A stretch of DNA of 64,000 bases from Escherichia coli (GCF_044324785.1 NZ_CP172127.1); one strand, 5' to 3'; counted from the stretch's first letter, positions 6,221-17,405 are shown. The notes: generated by a model not told the origin, from the sequence alone. Translations and numbers: made by a program.

Positions 6221-6312
6221 ATTGACTTAGAAAAAGCCCGGGGCTATAGTTTCCGCGCAGCCGCAAAATCGGTTGCCGGGATTGGCGTCCCGGATATCTA
6301 AGTGACGCATAG

Positions 6313-6331
6313 CCGCGTTAGCGGTTTTTTT
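6313..6331 (+). terminator. putative intrinsic terminator
   Basis: ccgcgttagcgg hairpin followed by a T7 run. Confidence 0.45.
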
Positions 6332-6444
6332 ATGTGTTAGGCACGGCCACATTCGCATTATGGTGGGCTGTGTGGGGGCTTCTGCGGAAGCGCCGGGTTC
6401 ACTTAGCCGGTTACGCCAACCCTGCACAGTTCACCACCAGATGA

Positions 6445-7137
6445 TTGGCGTCGCTGGTGGTGATGAAAAAAACACTAAGTGAGGCCACTGCGATGACAAT
6501 CCAAATATCTGCGGAATCCCTTTCTCCGCTACATCATAACCAACTTCCCGTCATCACTACTGAATTGCTTGCCAGTTTGTATGGCACGGAAGTAAATGGT
6601 ATCCAGCAAAACTTCAAGCGCAACATCGCCAGATTTGTCGTAGGAAAGCATTTTTTTAAGCTGGAAGGTAATGAATTACGCGACTTCAAAAACAGACTGA
6701 CAGATAGTCAGTCAGTTGCTAAACATACCCGATCCCTCATTCTCTGGACAGAACGCGGCGCAGCTCGCCATGCCAAAATGCTGGAAACAGAACAGGCCTG
6801 GGAAGTTTTCGAAAAGCTGGAAGATTGTTATTTTAGCCAGCGTCCAGAGAGGCGGAGTACAACTACCGATGACCGTACTCCCTTACGTGATGCCGTTAAT
6901 ATGCTGGTCGGTAAGAAAGGCATGATGTATCCCGATGCCTACACCATGATTCATCAACGCTTCGCCGTCTCTCACATAGAACAACTGTCACAGACGCAAA
7001 TGTTAGAGGCGATTGAATACATCCACTGCCTGCTACTCGATGAAAATCAACCAACCATTCCAGATCACCACTATCAAAAATGGAAAAGTGACCAGAATGC
7101 GCCATGTTGCCAAAGGCGAACATCTGATGACCTTTGA
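6445..7137 (+). CDS. antirepressor-like protein with ORF6N-type N-terminal domain
   Basis: ELLASLYGTEVNGIQQNFKRNIARFVVGKHFFKLEGNELRDF pattern; C-terminal 30 aa look unnatural, possible frameshift into 7013..7270. Confidence 0.5.
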   Translation: MASLVVMKKTLSEATAMTIQISAESLSPLHHNQLPVITTELLASLYGTEVNGIQQNFKRNIARFVVGKHFFKLEGNELRDFKNRLTDSQSVAKHTRSLILWTERGAARHAKMLETEQAWEVFEKLEDCYFSQRPERRSTTTDDRTPLRDAVNMLVGKKGMMYPDAYTMIHQRFAVSHIEQLSQTQMLEAIEYIHCLLLDENQPTIPDHHYQKWKSDQNAPCCQRRTSDDL

Positions 7138-7270
7138 CGCTTTCAAAGAGATCGCTGAGCGGGCAGGGTATCTGGTGATCCACAGCGACAATCTGCGAAG
7201 TATGACACTGGATAAATTGATGGTAATGGGGAAAAAGTCTGCTGTATCCGTTGCTGATTCAGCATTTTGA
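7013..7270 (+). CDS. possible C-terminal continuation of antirepressor in +1 frame, or separate small gene
   Basis: protein-like ORF overlapping the 3' end of 6445..7137 in another frame. Confidence 0.3.
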   Translation: MNTSTACYSMKINQPFQITTIKNGKVTRMRHVAKGEHLMTFDAFKEIAERAGYLVIHSDNLRSMTLDKLMVMGKKSAVSVADSAF

Positions 7271-7300
7271 CAGGTTGAATGTTTGGCGCGGTTATACTCT

Positions 7301-7377
7301 ATTTGCGCTTAAAAAGGTATTTAGTCACAACCAGCACGAGGCCGAATACTCTGTCAAAGTACCGCCCATGTAAAACT
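7301..7377. repeat. direct repeat copy A (~77 bp), degenerate copy of the 3' end of gene 10899..11504
   Basis: about 92 percent identical to 10901..10978 with a 1-nt indel. Confidence 0.8.
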
Positions 7378-7447
7378 GTAACGTATGTACTTGATGACTA
7401 AGCTGGCACCAGGTTAACACCAGGCGCCAGCTTGAAGGAAACTTCAG

Positions 7448-8371
7448 TTATTGGTTTCTGAGGAAAGCGATTCTTGAAAGGGTCATTTGCGTCTGGCAGT
7501 CGACCATTTTCTTGACTTCAGCATCTGTTCCCTGCATTGAAACTTTACCGCACATAGCATCCTTAGTTTTGATCCACTGACGCTGAGAAGGCAGCAAATC
7601 TTTTTTCTTCGCCGGGGTTAACTTGCTCCAGACGGTACTCAAATCAGAGTCGGCATTCGCAAATGCCATTCGGGACTGATCAAGGCTGTCAGCTTTTTGT
7701 GGCTGAAGTTGTGCCTGTCTCTCTATTTGCTTCTCCGCCTCATACTTAGCCTGTTCCTGCGCCCTGAGTTGCACCTGTTGTTCCGCTTCAATTTGGCTCT
7801 GTTGGGCATCCTTAGCCTGCTGGATTTTCTGCTGCTCAACGATCGGGTTGATAATAGAAAGTGATGTCAGTAAAGCGGCGCCCACTGATATCGGATTATC
7901 AGAAGAGGTTTTTACAAAAACGTTTTTCTGATCGTCGGTCGCCTGCACGGTGTAGGTGATACGTTTGGAAAAGGCGTTTGCGTTGTTCTCCAAAAACAGG
8001 CTTTCCATTTGCTTGTCGAGATTACGATTAAAATTCTTTCTGTAATCATCAGAAAGCTGGACGTATTCGTTCGCAGGTAGAGTCATCGTCACGGTCCCTT
8101 CACAAGTTTTCATTGTGCTGCCCGTGTCACTTGATGTTGTGGAGATTTCAGAGATGGCTAGTTTGATCTTGTCCAATGTGCTTCGTTTGGTCTGATTAGT
8201 GACATCAGGGTATTTATCGACCTGTTCAGAGAGTCCTTCATAAGCAGATTTTTTTAATAAATCCATAAGCGCTGACTGGGTTATTTCCGAAGAACAACCG
8301 ATCACATCTTTTTTGTTATCACAGCCTGTAAGGGCAATGGCGAGTAAGAGTACTGAGTATTTTAATCTCAT
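7448..8371 (-). CDS. lipoprotein with C-terminal DUF1311 (LprI-like) domain
   Basis: lipobox LTGC after signal peptide; Gln-rich coiled coil; C-terminal QRQWIKTKDAMCG...DCQTQMTLSRIAFL pattern. Confidence 0.55.
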   Translation of the reverse strand: MRLKYSVLLLAIALTGCDNKKDVIGCSSEITQSALMDLLKKSAYEGLSEQVDKYPDVTNQTKRSTLDKIKLAISEISTTSSDTGSTMKTCEGTVTMTLPANEYVQLSDDYRKNFNRNLDKQMESLFLENNANAFSKRITYTVQATDDQKNVFVKTSSDNPISVGAALLTSLSIINPIVEQQKIQQAKDAQQSQIEAEQQVQLRAQEQAKYEAEKQIERQAQLQPQKADSLDQSRMAFANADSDLSTVWSKLTPAKKKDLLPSQRQWIKTKDAMCGKVSMQGTDAEVKKMVDCQTQMTLSRIAFLRNQ

Positions 8372-8996
8372 GAATTCCCTTTAGAGTAAGGATTGGTTTT
8401 TAAGACGCGGTCTGTAATCAGTTCCGAGAGCTACAGTAAACAACGCTGAGCACTGAACGCATCACAGGCAAGGTAAAGGCGATATCGGCAAAGGCTGTGA
8501 AACCTTTAATTCAACAGATGGAAACGGTATGCGCAGGATCCTGTAACGACGCTCCCAAAACCGGAAACCTGTAAGGCATGTTTTCGCTGCTGAACTTAAT
8601 ATACGAACCTGCACTATCATGAACATATTTTATATCGTTATACCCCGAGTGATTGTGCCCGGCAATGGATAGTGTCCTGGAGGAACTATTTCTACTGTAA
8701 AAGGTAGACATTTAATTTCAGTGTGGAATTATTCCCTGCTGTTAATAACCATGGCTCTATATGGCACCGAGCGGACTAGTTAACTTGCCTGAAAGCCGCT
8801 ATGAGTGAGGAGCGAATATTGGCACGAGAGGATACCTGAACCATTTTTTGGACATGCGCTAAAAGCGAATGATTAGTTTTATCGGAATATTTACAGTATA
8901 CTTACAAGGCAAGCTTGGCGTGCCGTCTTGGGCGAGATTGCTTAAATTATTTTGTGGATATATCATTCAAACAAAAGATAATAAAATGAGGTTGTT

Positions 8997-9194
8997 ATGT
9001 CATATATTCGCGTAGAGAAAGATGGCCTTCAGTATGAAGCAGAATACTTCCGTAAAGAGGATATGGTCACAGTCTTTGGGGTTAGAGGAGGGCATTCCAG
9101 CGTGGTTCTAAATGGAATGACAGAAGTCGCGGCTGCTCGTACTGCGTTACGAAATCTTATTAGAGAAAATCAGGTTGATCCTCTAACTGATTAA
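8997..9194 (+). CDS. hypothetical small protein (65 aa)
   Basis: ORF in AT-rich island, GAGG RBS. Confidence 0.4.
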   Translation: MSYIRVEKDGLQYEAEYFRKEDMVTVFGVRGGHSSVVLNGMTEVAAARTALRNLIRENQVDPLTD

Positions 9195-9398
9195 AAATAA
9201 GCCATCTTAACTGAGAGCATATTTTGATATAATTTAGATTAAATCTATTTTGAAGGTTAGTTTGGGATGAGAAGATTACATCAAAACCGTTATTACTAGC
9301 AATAAGTTGTGTAAATCAAATAATACATAATCATGTGGTAACATATACTAAGCGTAGTAAAGTTTTTATATATTCCTGTAACTTTGTGAGAAACTTCC

Positions 9399-10064
9399 AT
9401 GAAAGCCGACAACTTAAGAATTATAGAGAATGGCAAATATGTTTTCGATATGTTCTTGGATACTGGTGAATTTTACTATACAAGTCATGCCTTTGACACG
9501 AGAGAAGATGCAAAAAGCTGGATGGAAGAATGGCAGATTTGGGCAAATAATGTATCGAGTGGGAAAGTAAGTAGTATTTATTATATTTTACAAGTGCCTG
9601 ATACTTGGGCCGGTTCTTCAGATAAAAATAACCCTTACTCGGGACTTTATGTGAAAATAGGGCGTTCCAATAATGTGCTAAAAAGGTTGTCTAACCTGCA
9701 GACAGGTGCATTTGGTCAATTAATATTACACGCTTTGGAACCTGGTGGTTCAGAAAAAGAAAACTATCTTCATGAAAAATTTAGCAACGAAAGACGTCAA
9801 GGTGAATGGTTTGTTTGTACTAAGGAACTTACCAAGCATATATTTACAACATGGTTTAAAAACAAAATGCTCCCACCAGAACATCAAATAAAAATAATGC
9901 AGCTCGCAGAAAGAATAGGTATTTATTCGCATGTTCATACACTAATGGGGGGGAAGCCAGACTTAGTAAACCCATCTATTAGTGAACCTTGGGAATGCGA
10001 AAAATATGTTTTGGTTGATATGATTTATAGCTCTTTAGCAAAGCAAGTTAATCATAAAAAATAA
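9399..10064 (+). CDS. T5orf172 (MUG113, GIY-YIG-like) domain protein
   Basis: YVKIGRSNNVLKRLSNLQTG ... LHEKFSNERRQGEWF matches the T5orf172 signature; unknown flanking regions. Confidence 0.6.
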   Translation: MKADNLRIIENGKYVFDMFLDTGEFYYTSHAFDTREDAKSWMEEWQIWANNVSSGKVSSIYYILQVPDTWAGSSDKNNPYSGLYVKIGRSNNVLKRLSNLQTGAFGQLILHALEPGGSEKENYLHEKFSNERRQGEWFVCTKELTKHIFTTWFKNKMLPPEHQIKIMQLAERIGIYSHVHTLMGGKPDLVNPSISEPWECEKYVLVDMIYSSLAKQVNHKK

Positions 10065-10384
10065 AGTGTTACATTTTAACCATACAATTATTGATTCACT
10101 AATGAAGAGGTGATTTAAACGTATGAAGTTTTAATAAGCTCCAAGAATATTTTGTCATACATGGGTTAAAGAGTTATATAATAATATCTGCTTCTGGAAT
10201 ACAGCAGACAAGCACCTGCAGATAAAGGTCTGCTGAGAGCGAGAAGCGGATCATACGTTGGAAGTTGTTTAGGCAAATACGTTATAAACGTATTTGATTA
10301 AATTTACTTGGATCATAGTCTTCAATAACGCTTTATTATATTGTTTTTCATGCAGCAAACAGGTTTACAGGTAGGTAATAAGCT

Positions 10385-10789
10385 ATGAGTGGATGGAAAG
10401 AGTCTTTTACATTAGCAGAACAGATACAATTAGCATTAAATTTAGGTTATGAGGCTGTACCAGATGAAGAGGCATATACTGGGGCATACTTCATTAAAGG
10501 TGGTAAGAAGTGGATCTTTAACATCATCGGTCTCAAAAAGACATTGAATATATCTTCAGATGATGAACTAAGAGGGCAGGATTATGATGTTGATATGTAT
10601 TTCGAAATTCGCCAAAATTGGGCACAATACCAAGATATGATCTTTGGAAGCGAAGATATCACTCCTTCACCTAAAAATGAACTTACTTCAATTTACCATG
10701 ACCTGCAGGTAACGGATGAACCCAGGGAAATGGTGTATCTTTCTGATGGGATGTGGCTGGATCCCAACGGACGAATTGTACAACGATAG
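10385..10789 (+). CDS. hypothetical protein (134 aa)
   Basis: ORF in AT-rich island with long AT-rich leader. Confidence 0.4.
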   Translation: MSGWKESFTLAEQIQLALNLGYEAVPDEEAYTGAYFIKGGKKWIFNIIGLKKTLNISSDDELRGQDYDVDMYFEIRQNWAQYQDMIFGSEDITPSPKNELTSIYHDLQVTDEPREMVYLSDGMWLDPNGRIVQR

Positions 10790-10898
10790 CACTCGAACAC
10801 ACTCAGTAATCGTCTATAAGGCCAGCACTTGTTACTTGGTCATTTGGGGTTGCTGGTCTTCTCCATTAAATCGACTAAAGTCTGTTCCATAGAGAGAG

Positions 10899-11504
10899 TT
10901 ACTTGCGTTTAAAAAGGTATTTTGTCACGACCAGCACGAGGCCGAATACCTCTGTCAAAGTACCGCCCATGTACAACTGGAGCGTTAAGTCTTTAAATAC
11001 AAGCCATTCAGCACCAGTGGCAAAAAATACACCATTCATTATCAAAAGCTGGCAAGCAAGGATAATAAGGAACCATTTGCCATAGCGTTTTTTTAGATCG
11101 ATTTCAGCTTCAAAATCTTTGTTGTTGAGTTGTTTGCGCTCATGCTCAGTATCAAGTGAATTCACCTGTTTCACAGATGTGAACTCGGTCAAGATTTTAC
11201 TCTCAGTACGGGTGACTTGTTGAGAGGGGGTAGGAATTGGAATTCTTTTGATTGACGCAGCTACAGCCATTTTGCGAGCTTCGGCAGCTCTTTTTCTGGC
11301 TATTCCGTGAATACGGGCAGACGGTTTTTTTGGAGCATGCGAAACCTTTGTCTGAGGTGAAGTTTCGTCAGGAGACTGAACCGGAGTTTCATCCTCCTCC
11401 GGCTCAACCTCTTCTGCTAACTGACGGTGTAGGTTGAGGGAATCCTTCAGTCGGCGTGCAACTTCCTGTTTGAAACGGCTGTTAAAATCGTCATCCGATG
11501 GCAT
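10899..11504 (-). CDS. membrane-anchored protein (charged N-terminal region, two C-terminal TM helices), partner of ImmA-like peptidase
   Basis: start 9 nt after peptidase stop, RBS inside peptidase 3' end; hydrophobic segments WFLIILACQLLIMNGVFFATGA and LVLVVTKYLF. Confidence 0.55.
   Translation of the reverse strand: MPSDDDFNSRFKQEVARRLKDSLNLHRQLAEEVEPEEDETPVQSPDETSPQTKVSHAPKKPSARIHGIARKRAAEARKMAVAASIKRIPIPTPSQQVTRTESKILTEFTSVKQVNSLDTEHERKQLNNKDFEAEIDLKKRYGKWFLIILACQLLIMNGVFFATGAEWLVFKDLTLQLYMGGTLTEVFGLVLVVTKYLFKRK
10901..10978. repeat. direct repeat copy B (~78 bp), coding for the C-terminus of 10899..11504
   Basis: pairs with 7301..7377. Confidence 0.8.
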
Positions 11505-11513
11505 TCTAAAGCG

Positions 11514-12002
11514 TTACCCCAACCTCAAGTTCTTTAAACGATAAGTCATCGCATCGTCAGATACGCCAAAATGATGCGCCATTATATAACTTGGTTGGCC
11601 GTCAGCGTGCAGTTTTCTGACCTCATCTACCGGCATCAGAAGTTCTGCTGCGAACTTGTTCGCAAAAATTTCATCAGGATGCGTTCCGGCGCTTGCGGTT
11701 TCGCCACGTAAATCAACGTACTCATATTCATCGCTATGCGATGCTTGCCGGGCGATGTAATGCCCCAACTCATGCCCACATGAAAAACGTTGACGAACTT
11801 TGTTGTCATCACTGTTTAGAAAGATCGCTGGATCTTGATCTTTTTGTTTAATCAGTGCGCCAGAAACTTTCCCAGGAAGATCGGTAATAAAAACATCTAA
11901 TCCCATGTCGTGAGCAATTTTCGCTGGATCAACAGGGAAACCACGCCCGCACCAGAACGTGTCCAGCACTCGCCGGGCGTGCTCTCTTGGGTTGGTAGCC
12001 AT
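11514..12002 (-). CDS. ImmA/IrrE-family zinc metallopeptidase (DUF955)
   Basis: HELGHY zinc-binding motif and downstream EIFANKFAAELLMP segment. Confidence 0.7.
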   Translation of the reverse strand: MATNPREHARRVLDTFWCGRGFPVDPAKIAHDMGLDVFITDLPGKVSGALIKQKDQDPAIFLNSDDNKVRQRFSCGHELGHYIARQASHSDEYEYVDLRGETASAGTHPDEIFANKFAAELLMPVDEVRKLHADGQPSYIMAHHFGVSDDAMTYRLKNLRLG

Positions 12003-12075
12003 AGCTCCTCCAGTTACTGCATTACGATTATTGGTCGAAATATAGACAACATGTTCCGTACCACATTCCTGTAAA

Positions 12076-12094
12076 AGTGCAAATTCTGCACTTC
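12076..12094. promoter_or_regulatory. palindromic operator-like site upstream of the peptidase operon
   Basis: aagtgca-aattc-tgcactt, perfect 7-bp arms, about 75-90 bp upstream of the peptidase start. Confidence 0.4.
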
Positions 12095-12435
12095 TGGTAC
12101 GATATTAACTGTTAGTAGTAAAGTCTTCCAGATAAATCACTTTAAAATCGTGTGAATTGCTTGCTTTTTACGCTGCATTGTGGATGGCTCAATGTTTCCA
12201 GTAAAAACATACATGATAATCATGACATTAGTGGTTTTTTAGGCGTCCATCTGTTTCTTAAAAAAATGGATGCCACAAGCGCCCGGATGAGAACAGGAAG
12301 GGAAGGCTATTACATGTGTGATTTATTACATCTGTAAAAAAATACAGATCTAACCTGATCTTTTCATTGAAGTTTTTCTTGGTCCTGGATAGGATCTGGA
12401 GGTTGCGAAGATTTTAGAGTCGCATCAAAGGGAAA

Positions 12436-12461
12436 GCCCTGACAGCGCCAACTGTCAGGGC
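12436..12461. other. perfect 10-bp stem hairpin (gccctgacag / ctgtcagggc) in a 567-bp non-coding stretch
   Basis: inverted repeat with 6-nt loop; T-rich flank on minus strand. Confidence 0.5.
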
Positions 12462-12569
12462 CATACAAAAACATCGGTTAATGCTTTCGTTGAGATCTCG
12501 GTTTGGGAGATTACCTCAACCGGGATCCCGTGTAAAGCATTCATTGCCGAAAATGATATAGGTCAATGA

Positions 12570-12848
12570 ATGAAACACATCTGTAAAAAGTCACATCGTC
12601 ACGACAGTATGTTTGATGTTCTTTCCGCAAATCAGGGGAACGTTGGGCGGCACAAATGTTGTGGATGTGCCTATGATAAAGGTATGTGGCACGCATTAAT
12701 TGGCGTTCCACGTGCGGTTGATGACTCTGTTTTAGGTGATTTGCCCGAAAGCCAGGCCGGGCATGTACGTCATAAAGATGCTTTTGAAGCATATAACATG
12801 GGATATGACCATGGGATGCATAAAAAAGCCTACGGCATGGCCTCATAA
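12570..12848 (+). CDS. hypothetical Cys/His-containing protein (92 aa)
   Basis: ORF followed by a clear intrinsic terminator; antisense ORF 12541..12936 judged spurious. Confidence 0.45.
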   Translation: MKHICKKSHRHDSMFDVLSANQGNVGRHKCCGCAYDKGMWHALIGVPRAVDDSVLGDLPESQAGHVRHKDAFEAYNMGYDHGMHKKAYGMAS

Positions 12849-12868
12849 CCAGGTGTAACTTATTAACT

Positions 12869-12896
12869 AACCCGCTTCGGCGGGTTTTCTTTTTTA
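12869..12896 (+). terminator. intrinsic terminator
   Basis: aacccgcttcggcgggtt hairpin followed by ttcttttttat. Confidence 0.7.
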
Positions 12897-12966
12897 TAGA
12901 ACCCTGCGATGTGAAAACGAATAATAAATTGTGCAAATAGTGCAGTTTTTATTATTCGAGGTAATT

Positions 12967-13608
12967 ATGAAAACCTTCTATGAGGGCTGGCCTGAAACTT
13001 TCGTTAGCCGGTTAGATATGTTACGGGCGTTGGATGATCGCGGTTCGACCCGGAGGCTCTATCTTGAGCGGACCGGAGCAATATTTGGCGCTCTGGCAGA
13101 AGAGATACGTACAGCCGTTGCCGGGCATCCTGAAACTGACGCGAGTGAACTTGATATCGGGCCGCTATATCGCTATTACAAACGTGGAGAAAAGGGGGAT
13201 CCGCTGGCTGACTTACTTATTAAATTGGCTCCACCAACCTGTGAACGGGTTCGTATATCTCCTGAAGTGTACACAATCCCGTATCTGTTTTTTGCACTGT
13301 TGATAGCGCAAGGCGCTGACAACGATGCCCGAGATTTTTTCAATATGATGATGCGACCGTTGATCATCGCCTACCGCTTCAAACAACTGGCGCGCTACCT
13401 TGGCACGAAGGGCGGAGGACGACCACAGCACAGATTAAAAAGTGAAGCCATTGAACTGGCTGATCGTTTTTTTACTGAAAACCCGACTGCGCCATTATCG
13501 CGTGGTGTGCAATACATATCCGGTATTTTTGTGGCGAAATACTCCGATCCACCTGCAGCCTCGACGATTAGAAAATGGTTAATTTCAATTTACAGGAGTG
13601 ATAAATAA
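12967..13608 (+). CDS. hypothetical protein (about 213 aa from internal ATG with GAGGT RBS)
   Basis: ORF 12931..13608; better start at MKTFYEGW; no recognisable domain. Confidence 0.45.
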   Translation: MKTFYEGWPETFVSRLDMLRALDDRGSTRRLYLERTGAIFGALAEEIRTAVAGHPETDASELDIGPLYRYYKRGEKGDPLADLLIKLAPPTCERVRISPEVYTIPYLFFALLIAQGADNDARDFFNMMMRPLIIAYRFKQLARYLGTKGGGRPQHRLKSEAIELADRFFTENPTAPLSRGVQYISGIFVAKYSDPPAASTIRKWLISIYRSDK

Positions 13609-13759
13609 TGACCATAAACGGTTTAATCCCCTATAAAACCGTTTAATAAAATTCACGACGTGAATATAATTGTTCATTATTCCCTCATTGTATCTGGCGT
13701 TATGACAAATGCCATAAAATACTGTATAAATGTACAGGCGGTGGCGTTAGGGGGAAGAC

Positions 13760-13939
13760 ATGAATATTCAAGAATCTATAGGCGAACTACCGGAAACATG
13801 CCGGGCTGTTATCAAGCGTAAGGACGGACACATCGTTGGTGTGCGTGTTCTGACTGATGATGAACGGATTGCCAGCCTGATGGCGTTTCTCGAGTTGGCA
13901 GAAATAGCTGGATATACTATTACACCCCCTGACGCGTAA
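13760..13939 (+). CDS. hypothetical small protein (59 aa), below ORF-track threshold
   Basis: GGGGGAAGA RBS then ATG; translation MNIQESIGELPETCRAVIKRKDGHIVGVRVL... Confidence 0.35.
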   Translation: MNIQESIGELPETCRAVIKRKDGHIVGVRVLTDDERIASLMAFLELAEIAGYTITPPDA

Positions 13940-14016
13940 AACACGGTATAATATCGGTGCTGGATTGAACACCCGGCACCATTTTCTGAACACTGCCGCG
14001 CCACCTGGAGTTAACC

Positions 14017-14613
14017 ATGGCGCAGCATTCATTTATCAGGGTATCCGGCGGTTCGCTAATACCCGCGACACCAGACACGCAACGCTGGTTGACTGAACGA
14101 GTCAAACCAGGTGCTGTTGTGTATGCAGATTTCAAACAGGCGCGTAATCCCGCGTTTCATCGTAAATTTTTCTCACTTCTCAACCTGGGCTTTGATTACT
14201 GGCATCTCTCCGGAGGGGCTATTTCTCCTGCAGAGCGCGAACTGGTTCACGGCTACGTTAAGTTACTGGCTTATTACGGTGGGCATGGTGATGTCATGGC
14301 TGAGCTGGCTGATCAGTATCTTCTCGATGAGTCGGAAAAGCGCGCGGGGAATATCAGTGCGGTTAAGTCGTTCGAGGCGTTTCGCGCCTGGGCGACTATG
14401 GAAGCTGGATTTTATGACGTTCATCAGATGCCAGACGGCAGTGTGATGCGCGTACCTCGTTCAATCTCGTTTGCTGCGATGGACGATCTTGAGTTCGGTC
14501 AACTGTATTCAGCCGTTTTAGATGTGCTGTGGAATTATATTTTGTTCCGCACGTTTGCCTCTCAGGAGGCCGCTGAAAATGCCGCCGCGCAGCTGCTGGA
14601 TTACACATCATGA
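14017..14613 (+). CDS. DUF1367-family phage protein (YbcN-like, nin-region type)
   Basis: position upstream of YbcO-like and Q-like genes; sequence pattern recalled from DLP12 ybcN homologues. Confidence 0.5.
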   Translation: MAQHSFIRVSGGSLIPATPDTQRWLTERVKPGAVVYADFKQARNPAFHRKFFSLLNLGFDYWHLSGGAISPAERELVHGYVKLLAYYGGHGDVMAELADQYLLDESEKRAGNISAVKSFEAFRAWATMEAGFYDVHQMPDGSVMRVPRSISFAAMDDLEFGQLYSAVLDVLWNYILFRTFASQEAAENAAAQLLDYTS

Positions 14614-15671: not shown

Positions 15672-15935
15672 GAATCAGGAAAAATCATGTCTGAACCTCT
15701 AACCGCTGGCGTTGCTGCTGGCTCGGCGGGGGTGACGTTTGCTGCGTTATTTCCTGAGGCAACACCTGCAGTGATGATCTGTGCGCTGGCAGGCGCAGCT
15801 CTCTATGTGTTGTCGTCCGGGCAGCATCGATTCTGGAAGCAGGTTAGACTGGCCCCCTGAATCTCCAGACAACCAATATCACTTAAATAAGTGATAGTCT
15901 TAATACTAGTTTTTAGACTAGTCATTGGAGAGCAG

Positions 15936-16301
15936 ATGATTGATGTCTTAGGACCGGAGAAACGCAGACGGCGTACTACACAGGAAAAGATCGCTATTGT
16001 TCAGCAGAGTTTTGAACCGGGAATGACGGTCTCCCTTGTTGCCCGGCAACACGGTGTGGCAGCCAGCCAGTTATTTCTCTGGCGCAAGCAATACCAGGAG
16101 GGAAGTCTTACTGCTGTGGCCGCAGGAGAGCAGGTCGTTCCTGCCTCTGAACTTGCTGCTGCCATGAAGCAGATTAAAGAACTCCAGCGCCTGCTCGGCA
16201 AAAAAACGATGGAAAATGAACTCCTTAAAGAAGCCGTTGAATACGGGCGTGCAAAAAAGTGGATAGCGCACGCGCCCTTATTGCCCGGGGATGGGGAGTA
16301 A
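15936..16301 (+). CDS. insC: IS2 transposase OrfA (InsC)
   Basis: [53 protein letters not shown]. Confidence 0.9.
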
Positions 16302-17164
16302 GCTTAGTCAGCCGTTGTCTCCGGGTGTCGCGTGCGCAGTTGCACGTAATTCTCAGACGAACCGATGACTGGAAAGATGGTCGCCGCAGCCGTCACTCAG
16401 ATGATACGGATGTGCTTCTCCGTATACACCATGTTATCGGAGAGCTGCCCACGTATGGTTATCGTCGGGTATGGGCGCTGCTTCGCAGACAGGCCGAACT
16501 TGATGGTATGCCTGCGATCAATGCCAAACGTGTTTACCGGATCATGCGCCAGAATGCGCTGTTGCTTGAGCGAAAAACCGCTGTACCGCCATCGAAACGG
16601 GCACATACTGGCAAAGTGGCCGTGAAAGAAAGCAATCAACGATGGTGCTCTGACGGGTTCGAGTTCCGCTGTGATAACGGAGAAAAACTGCGAGTCACGT
16701 TCGCGCTGGACTGCTGTGACCGTGAGGCACTGCACTGGGCAGTCACTACGGGCGGCTTCGACAGTGAAACAGTACAGGACGTAATGCTGGGAGCGGTGGA
16801 ACGCCGCTTCGGCAACGAGCTTCCGGCGTCTCCAGTAGAGTGGCTGACGGATAATGGTTCATGCTACCGGGCTAATGAAACACGGCAGTTTGCCCGGATG
16901 TTGGGGCTTGAACCGAAGAACACGGCGGTGCGGAGTCCGGAGAGTAACGGCATAGCAGAGAGCTTCGTGAAAACGATAAAGCGTGACTACATCAGTATCA
17001 TGCCTAAACCAGACGGGTTAACGGCAGCAAAGAACCTTGCAGAGGCGTTCGAGCATTATAACGAATGGCATCCGCATAGTGCACTGGGTTATCGCTCGCC
17101 ACGGGAATATCTGCGGCAGCAGGCCAGTAATGGGTTAAGTGATAACAGGTGTCTGGAAATATAG
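16259..17164 (+). CDS. insD: IS2 transposase OrfB (InsD)
   Basis: 301-aa DDE transposase overlapping insC in -1 frame. Confidence 0.9.
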
Positions 17165-17405
17165 GGGCAAATCCACAGGTTATTTTCGCACTCATTTCGT
17201 TTGTTGGCGGTGTGTATTGCGCTGAGACAGCATCAGCCATCATTACCGGTATTCTGAACGCGGTGCTGAGTCACCTGAACCCTCCCGTAACAGTAAAAGT
17301 CTCTCCCGCCATTGGTGCACTGGTTGCATCAGTAATCAGCGTTACATCACTGTTGCGGATCATGTCACAAGCTCGTTTATGGAAATCAGATAAGGGGATG
17401 AAATA

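Follow-up and report, generated by a model that had tools for sequence, protein, structure and literature searches.

What occupies the interval between the antirepressor gene ant and the DUF1367, DUF1364 and Q genes of a lambdoid-type Escherichia coli prophage, and how did an 85-bp direct repeat come to lie within it? To address this question, we analysed a stretch of 64,000 nt, one strand, of E. coli GCF_044324785.1 (NZ_CP172127.1), hereafter the window, in which no tRNA gene was found and in which the region of interest lies at 7301-13950. The early region of the prophage carries Rac-like YdaS/YdaT immunity genes. From left to right, the locus contains ant, repeat copy A, lprI on the minus strand, and then, on the plus strand, open reading frames (ORFs) of 65, 221 and 134 aa, the second of which encodes a T5orf172 protein. 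These are followed by copy B, which lies in the minus-strand gene of a two-transmembrane (2-TM) membrane protein, by an ImmA/IrrE (M78) peptidase gene on the same strand, by a 92-aa ORF, and by the 225-aa, 59-aa, DUF1367, DUF1364 and Q genes (Table 1). The loci used for comparison (L001 to L027) came from complete E. coli genomes and from IMG/VR viral contigs. As set out below, the locus is probably an accessory hotspot for morons and defence genes, located between a C4-controlled ant and DUF1367/DUF1364/Q, in which segments are exchanged independently of each other and in which the repeat is a scar of such an exchange.

Variable gene content between conserved flanks

The flanks, on the ant side and on the side of the 225-aa, 59-aa, DUF1367 and Q genes, are 95-99% identical across L001-L027. 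Between ant and the membrane-protein gene, we counted at least six or seven distinct sets of cargo in related prophages, in agreement with a preliminary description of this DNA that had proposed variable cargo within a conserved backbone. The layout of the window is found in L001, L004 and L005. In the sequence type 131 (ST131) type (L002), lprI is kept and a 232-aa gene replaces 8771-10877. The ETEC1738 type (L003, which is ETEC1738, L016 and L025) has a 196-aa gene and a gene encoding a DUF262 protein, and it carries other genes in place of the peptidase and 2-TM operon. PD-T4-3 and three more genes are found in L012 and L014, and genes for a lipoprotein and an HNH protein, PD-T4-3 and a 455-aa gene in L024 and L019. 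L007 and L017 carry SMEK-domain, methyltransferase-like and restriction endonuclease-like genes, adjoining a diverged ant allele.

Several of these genes matched models of defence systems or related domains. The PD-T4-3 model matched at the slot with E=1.7e-137, the DUF262 protein of the ETEC1738 type matched the NsnA model (4e-41) and PD-T4-2_A (2.5e-19), and a SMEK_N domain was recognised with a value of 1e-31. PD-T4-3 is listed in PMC9519451 as an experimentally validated defence gene, and the Protein Data Bank (PDB) entry that matches it, 9u75, is titled as a 5-hydroxymethylcytosine (5hmC)-specific restriction endonuclease. The presence of PD-T4-3, DUF262/NsnA-like and SMEK genes at the same position in relatives bears out the earlier expectation of defence genes at this locus. 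Because different contents, known defence genes among them, lie between conserved flanks, we regard the locus as a true hotspot.

Most swaps have their breakpoints at a few places: ~8770, 0 to ~250 bp left of copy B, 12258 and 12869. Those at ~8770 and left of copy B leave lprI and copy A untouched. The repeat is therefore not the usual boundary of exchange, contrary to the earlier interpretation, since most swaps break elsewhere. To the right, the slot at 12259-12868 varies independently of the cargo; it is flanked by terminator-like hairpins at 12435-12462 (minus strand) and 12869-12886 (plus strand), and in ST131-type relatives it holds a 77-aa minus-strand gene instead. Beyond it, the backbone continues into DUF1367 (14017-14613), DUF1364 and Q, according to the RefSeq annotation of relatives. 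Thus, of the island that had been drawn from 7301 to 13950, the variable part stands, and the right part (12869-13950) does not, since it is backbone conserved in almost all relatives.

Of 5426 complete E. coli genomes, 445-448 (about 450, or ~8%) contained the prophage region, and most of these were of ST131; it was also found in IMG/VR viral contigs. A phage GenBank collection contained one partial relative of the region only and no copy of the 85-bp repeat.

Table 1. Features of the ant-to-DUF1367 locus; positions are counted from the first nucleotide of the window.
Feature	Position	Strand	Remarks
ant, ORF6N/KilAC-type antirepressor gene	6445-7270	+	phrog_4792 anti-repressor, E=1e-112
Repeat copy A	7300-7384	-	Orphan, frameshifted last ~24 codons and stop of membrane-protein gene; in most relatives
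lprI moron with own upstream region and downstream hairpin (7399-7433)	7402-8599 (coding sequence 7448-8371)	-	Pfam LprI, phrog_5094
AT-rich 2.1-kb cargo block, window-type-specific	8771-10867	+	65-aa, T5orf172 and 134-aa genes
65-aa ORF	8997-9194	+	
T5orf172/GIY-YIG-like gene, 221 aa	9399-10064	+	Pfam T5orf172/MUG113
134-aa ORF	10385-10789	+	
201-aa protein gene (variable hydrophilic N-terminus, conserved C-terminal 2-TM domain)	10899-11504	-	phrog_5346; no Pfam family
Repeat copy B	10900-10984	-	Functional 3' end of membrane-protein gene (last 24-26 codons and stop)
ImmA/IrrE (Peptidase_M78) metallopeptidase gene, HELGH motif	11514-12002	-	phrog_87; 9 bp upstream of 2-TM gene
Second independent variable slot, with 92-aa Cys-rich ORF (12570-12848)	12259-12868	+	phrog_3941
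Conserved backbone, 225-aa (phrog_5215) and 59-aa (phrog_340) genes	12931-13939	+	95-100% identity in nearly all relatives

The captured lprI gene and the AT-rich cargo block

The cargo of the window is itself composite, consisting of a captured chromosomal lprI and a 2.1-kb AT-rich block. In a profile along the window, GC content falls to 0.32-0.37 at 9000-10750 and is 0.39-0.42 at 8000-9250, compared with 0.45-0.55 in the flanks, which agrees with the AT-richness noted earlier for the interval between the repeats. An alignment of the lprI-containing segment (7402-8599) with a non-phage locus on the Citrobacter freundii chromosome extends over 1217 bp at 87% DNA identity; it takes in the lprI coding sequence, 228 bp on its upstream side and 46 bp on its downstream side, where the hairpin lies. 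Given this identity to a non-phage locus, lprI is a captured host gene and a classic moron. Its features are those of a moron also in other respects: it has a foreign origin, a putative promoter region of its own and a hairpin, and L006, L007 and L012 either lack it or have a truncated form (125 nt are left in L012 and L014). An LprI/DUF1311 Pfam domain covers residues 226-304 of the product, and the N-terminus contains the lipobox LTGC; Pfam likewise recovered the T5orf172 domain, so both of the cargo proteins named in the preliminary description were correctly identified.

The AT-rich block of the window type was found in 17 genomes at ≥99% identity. Full-length homologues of its T5orf172 protein (45-90% identity) occur as single genes in Enterobacter, Morganella, Klebsiella, Vibrio and others. 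They lie in a chromosomal islet by an AAA_15 and DUF4435 pair, which we take to be PARIS-like, in a Vibrio small-gene array with BrnT and ParE toxin genes, and by a filamentous prophage. The T5orf172 protein of the window falls outside the PD-T4-3/COG3680 family of GIY-YIG nucleases found at the slot in relatives, as it had no PADLOC match to PD-T4-3 and gave E=1.1 in BLASTP against the PD-T4-3 homologue of L012. Homologues of the 134-aa protein occur in Proteus, Providencia, Serratia, Citrobacter and Yersinia, at prophage ends; one of them lies two genes from ApeA and another at the end of a P2-like prophage. The AlphaFold2 model of the 134-aa protein (mean predicted local distance difference test score, pLDDT, 53) was too poor for a structure search. 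We also considered whether the 65-aa, T5orf172 and 134-aa genes form a three-gene system, and we rejected this because, outside E. coli, T5orf172 and 134-aa homologues occur without each other. From their positions and the neighbours of their homologues, the T5orf172, 65-aa and 134-aa proteins, LprI, and the M78 and 2-TM pair may act in phage exclusion or defence; we put the chance that the window's own cargo takes part in phage conflict at slightly under even.

An alternative is that the cargo is chiefly of use to the host, in fitness or in lysogenic conversion (LprI, for instance, might have an envelope or a lysozyme-related function), and that its variation reflects niche adaptation or neutral turnover. 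This would fit with lprI being chromosomal in Citrobacter and widespread in other Enterobacterales, and with the window's own cargo proteins having no known defence assignment. However, in relatives the slot holds PD-T4-3, DUF262/NsnA-like, SMEK and HNH proteins, and the homologues of the T5orf172 and 134-aa proteins adjoin the AAA_15 and DUF4435 pair and ApeA. We therefore consider host fitness an improbable chief role, although it is compatible with a hotspot of morons and defence genes and does not exclude it.

The T5orf172 protein has the GIY-YIG/T5orf172 nuclease domain expected of free-standing homing endonucleases, which raises a second alternative, namely that it cuts nearby alleles that lack cargo or hold other cargo and, by break repair, drags the 2.1-kb block and flanking markers into related phages. 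Alleles without the T5orf172 gene do exist, but they carry other cargo, and the cargo varies equally in relatives that have no such gene. Furthermore, each genome has one copy of the gene, and its homologues stand singly, in contexts that are non-phage or non-essential and are not typical homing sites. Homing is thus a distinctly unlikely source of the variation.

Two further observations concern the ends of the cargo sets. A loosely similar stretch of ~50 nt opens several unrelated sets (window ~8771-8820; also L007, L002 and L003), with the pattern ...GCGGAC...CCGC..TGAGTGAGGA.CGAA..., and could be a shared boundary or linker sequence. It was seen by eye, and a consensus pattern gave no match because of indels, so we do not count it as an element. 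In addition, ~250 bp directly left of copy B are common to the ST131-, SMEK- and PD-T4-3-type sets at 96-98% identity (L002 7056-7306 and its equivalents in L007 and L012); this stretch contains no annotated gene and is missing from the window-type block.

The direct repeat and the interval that it brackets

We bounded the repeat by aligning 7281-7400 with 10881-11000. The two copies are 90.7% identical over 86 aligned columns and differ by a single 1-nt deletion, which lies in copy A. In a scan of the whole window, this pair was the only direct repeat of at least 40 nt; a 33-nt core of the repeat matched only the A and B sites in the window, and 0 of 100 shuffles matched it. Copy B opens at the stop codon of ORF 10899-11504 (minus strand), and the peptide that it encodes ends in YMGGTLTEVFGLVLVVTKYLFKRK before the stop. 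In copy A, the same peptide is divided between two reading frames, and copy A is therefore frameshifted. These results uphold the earlier account of a repeat pair with one 1-nt indel, of copy B as the 3' end of the membrane-protein gene and of copy A as a frameshifted orphan.

Orphan copies have decayed in other genomes as well as in the window. In ETEC1738, both copies are kept where no membrane gene exists; copy B there has an in-frame stop and copy A many replacements. In L007, copy A is cut to a 14-nt vestige. In GPEC172 (L006), ant abuts the 2-TM gene and the whole A-to-B interval is absent; its single repeat is identical to copy A of L002 on the left part and to copy B of L002 on the right part. 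This hybrid indicates that a crossover between A and B can remove the A-to-B interval as one unit, so that the repeat-to-repeat content is a real indel, as first described. The layout with a single hybrid repeat was found in 1 of 445 genomes.

We infer the direction and mechanism of the original duplication as follows. Exchange probably proceeds by recombination between related phage genomes, and relaxed homologous recombination is documented as a source of lambdoid mosaics and of exchange between temperate phages (PMC3945230, PMC2327257). The units that are exchanged independently are probably lprI, the replaceable slot 8771-10867 with its three unrelated AT-rich genes, the ImmA/IrrE and 2-TM operon, and the slot 12259-12868. 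lprI came from an enterobacterial chromosome and was captured along with a putative promoter region and its terminator hairpin. In the simplest history, an ancestral arrangement, in which ant and the membrane gene converged, would then have been joined, ~24 codons before the stop of the membrane gene, to a segment of another phage that brought lprI, the cargo and its own end of the membrane gene. This unequal join would have left the old gene end orphaned as copy A. Copies A and B remain substrates for homologous recombination, which can delete, and in principle reinstall, the 3.4-3.6 kb between them. The ST131 copies differ from each other at 7 nt, of which 4 lie in synonymous codon pairs and 3 within one codon; this pattern, though the numbers are small, is a hint of two functional alleles and not of a single sequence that was duplicated.

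Several points weigh against a hotspot with the repeat as its scar. First, the GPEC172 state may be ancestral or a deletion, since the hybrid repeat fits both and a Campbell-type insertion predicts the same hybrid. Second, copy A differs by 11.6% between the window and ST131 types, compared with 2.5-3.9% at nearby neutral sites, a difference for which simple decay in place does not account without additional conversion or exchange at the repeat; from these divergences, further exchange at copy A between prophage types is likely. Third, PADLOC gave no convincing defence match for the 65-aa, T5orf172, 134-aa, LprI-domain and 2-TM proteins, and a defence role of the window-type cargo would rest on its position and on the contexts of its homologues. 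Finally, the sampling is shallow: the more than 400 E. coli genomes are mostly of one clone (ST131), and the IMG/VR contigs examined number only ~14.

The preliminary description had interpreted the repeat as the duplicated target of an inserted or exchanged cassette. Taken literally, this would mean that a discrete mobile element entered the membrane gene at its 3' end and, like a transposon or an integrative element, generated a target duplication. The direct repeats do bracket a compositionally foreign segment, and one genome lacks exactly the repeat-to-repeat interval. However, target duplications are short and are identical when formed, whereas these repeats are 85 bp long and have diverged by ~9%. 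Neither between the repeats nor next to them is there a gene for a transposase or an integrase: no such ORF was found in 7300-10984, and the only insertion sequence (IS) of the region, IS2 at 15847-17175, is outside the interval. No terminal inverted repeats were found at the island, where no dedicated inverted-repeat scan was made. The interior combines a Citrobacter-like chromosomal gene with an AT-rich block and is also exchanged at other breakpoints; and the differences between the ST131 copies (4 of 7 synonymous, 3 in one codon) point, in their small numbers, to two functional alleles. The duplicated-target interpretation is thus very improbable. An integron-like array is not indicated either, since the repeat is present at two junctions only, the junctions at ~8770, 12258 and 12869 lack it, and no integrase lies nearby.

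A functional cis element (terminator, small RNA or recombination site) with both copies under selection would explain why both lie at convergent-gene junctions and why several lineages, ETEC1738 among them, keep the repeat where it is not part of an intact gene, but it has hardly any likelihood, since folding energies are unremarkable on either strand of both copies (copy B z -0.65 to -1.3; the sole strong hairpin near A lies outside it), Rfam matches were confined to isrK, C4 and a1b1 upstream of ant, outside the island, and orphan copies acquire frameshifts, stops and replacements or, as in L007, are trimmed. We also considered the repeat as a patch conserved at the DNA level that guides recombination between distant alleles. 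This was ruled out by L054 and L057, in which the same 24 residues are kept and the DNA of the C-terminal region is only ~68-69% identical.

A 32-nt protospacer with an AAG protospacer-adjacent motif lies in copy B (10917-10948) and exactly matches a type I-E spacer in a clustered regularly interspaced short palindromic repeats (CRISPR) array of E. coli ECNB21-M121. CRISPR-annotated matches in other genomes were also found for the lprI 5' end (~8336-8379) and for immA (~11762-11796). Natural E. coli type I-E CRISPR arrays hold spacers against this prophage island.

The peptidase pair, the flanks and known hotspots

The family defined by the C-terminal 90 residues of the 201-aa membrane protein is large, with 313 representative clusters at E≤0.001, and the protein had no Pfam or helix-turn-helix (HTH) match. 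In 6 of 6 other contexts examined, all of them prophages or integrase-bearing elements, an M78 gene (160-172 aa) lies directly upstream of the 2-TM gene, down to 23% identity to the window protein. These results demonstrate that the pairing of M78 and 2-TM genes is conserved among distant mobile elements. Comparison of alleles gave 76-78% DNA identity for the peptidase gene and no detectable similarity for the N-terminal half of the membrane-protein gene. Between the window and ST131 types (L002 7329-7934), the 2-TM gene has diverged by 7.3% (~5% at codon positions 1 and 2), compared with 0.6% for the peptidase gene. Taken together, these values indicate that the N-terminus of the 2-TM protein evolves unusually fast.

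The pair resembles ImmA/ImmR and CapP/CapH in having a small M78 metallopeptidase with an HExxH motif, and the best PADLOC match (capP, 1.6e-25) and the PDB match (7t5t) of the window peptidase are both CapP. Unlike in those systems, its constant neighbour is a 2-TM protein and not an HTH repressor: no HTH gene adjoins the peptidase gene, and there is no minus-strand ORF of at least 40 aa at 12003-12540. By analogy, the pair might be a protease-controlled membrane effector of an abortive-infection, exclusion or toxin-antitoxin-like kind, with the T5orf172 and 134-aa proteins as single-gene defence or counter-defence factors, a proposal that we make tentatively and consider rather doubtful. In such a system, the peptidase would cleave or restrain the hypervariable cytoplasmic N-terminus of the 2-TM protein upon infection or a DNA-damage cue, and the module would anchor the hotspot. 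Our literature searches found no description, name or function for the M78 and 2-TM module or for the 2-TM partner, and nothing specific on the ant-to-DUF1367 hotspot.

Hotspots in P2-like prophages and P4-like satellites (Rousset et al., 2022, PMC9122126; Vassallo et al., 2022, PMC9519451) likewise have a fixed position and varying small gene sets, and their contents include validated anti-phage systems and many hypothetical genes. The present locus differs from them in belonging to another phage family, in lying between a C4-controlled ant and DUF1367/Q, and in having several nested slots with an internal 85-bp repeat that permits deletion of a block. With lambdoid morons and with the mosaic modules of modular theory, exchanged by relaxed homologous recombination (De Paepe et al., 2014, PMC3945230; Martinsohn et al., 2008, PMC2327257), it shares genes of foreign composition between backbone genes, with their own promoter and terminator, junctions common to relatives, and exchange through short diverged homologies. 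It differs from these in that lprI can be traced at the DNA level to a bacterial chromosomal locus, and in that a duplicated gene end, still recognisable and still recombining, remains at one junction. Features of this type are known, as prophage defence and moron hotspots and as mosaic exchange, and the present instance and the M78 and 2-TM module appear to be undescribed. With its fixed flanks, the hotspot offers a simple handle for mining anti-phage and anti-defence candidates between ant and DUF1367, in a prophage family that includes the pandemic ST131 clone. Furthermore, it provides a natural example of an orphaned gene end as a built-in switch that removes a cargo block of ~3.5 kb, and it points to a peptidase and 2-TM pair conserved across distant mobile elements.

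Just upstream of ant, Rfam matches above the gathering score were obtained for c4-a1b1 (6244-6296), isrK (6257-6331) and C4 antisense RNA (6356-6441); by these matches, the predicted RNAs are a P1 immI/Gifsy-1 IsrK-type antisense control unit for the antirepressor. A ~60-bp piece of the query that is common to many Shiga toxin (Stx) phages overlaps the C4 3' end and the start of ant. The ant gene of the window lacks 11 bp, ATTTTTCTTTT (site 7065-7075), compared with all relatives examined. This deletion divides the gene into ORFs 6445-7137 and 7013-7270, whereas the gene of relatives is intact (262-264 aa), and the copy in the window is probably a pseudogene.

IS insertions recur in the hotspot of relatives, with an IS3 inside lprI of ETEC1738 (L003 3380-4593), ISEc53 in two ST131-type genomes (H45 and H51) and IS1A in one window-type genome (H187). 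In the window, the IS2 element, with ORFs resembling InsC and InsD, disrupts a putative holin gene, which follows Q in relatives; homology to the ST131 type ends at 15846 and restarts at 17176. The broken ant and the IS2 in the holin gene suggest a decaying prophage, defective in induction or lysis.

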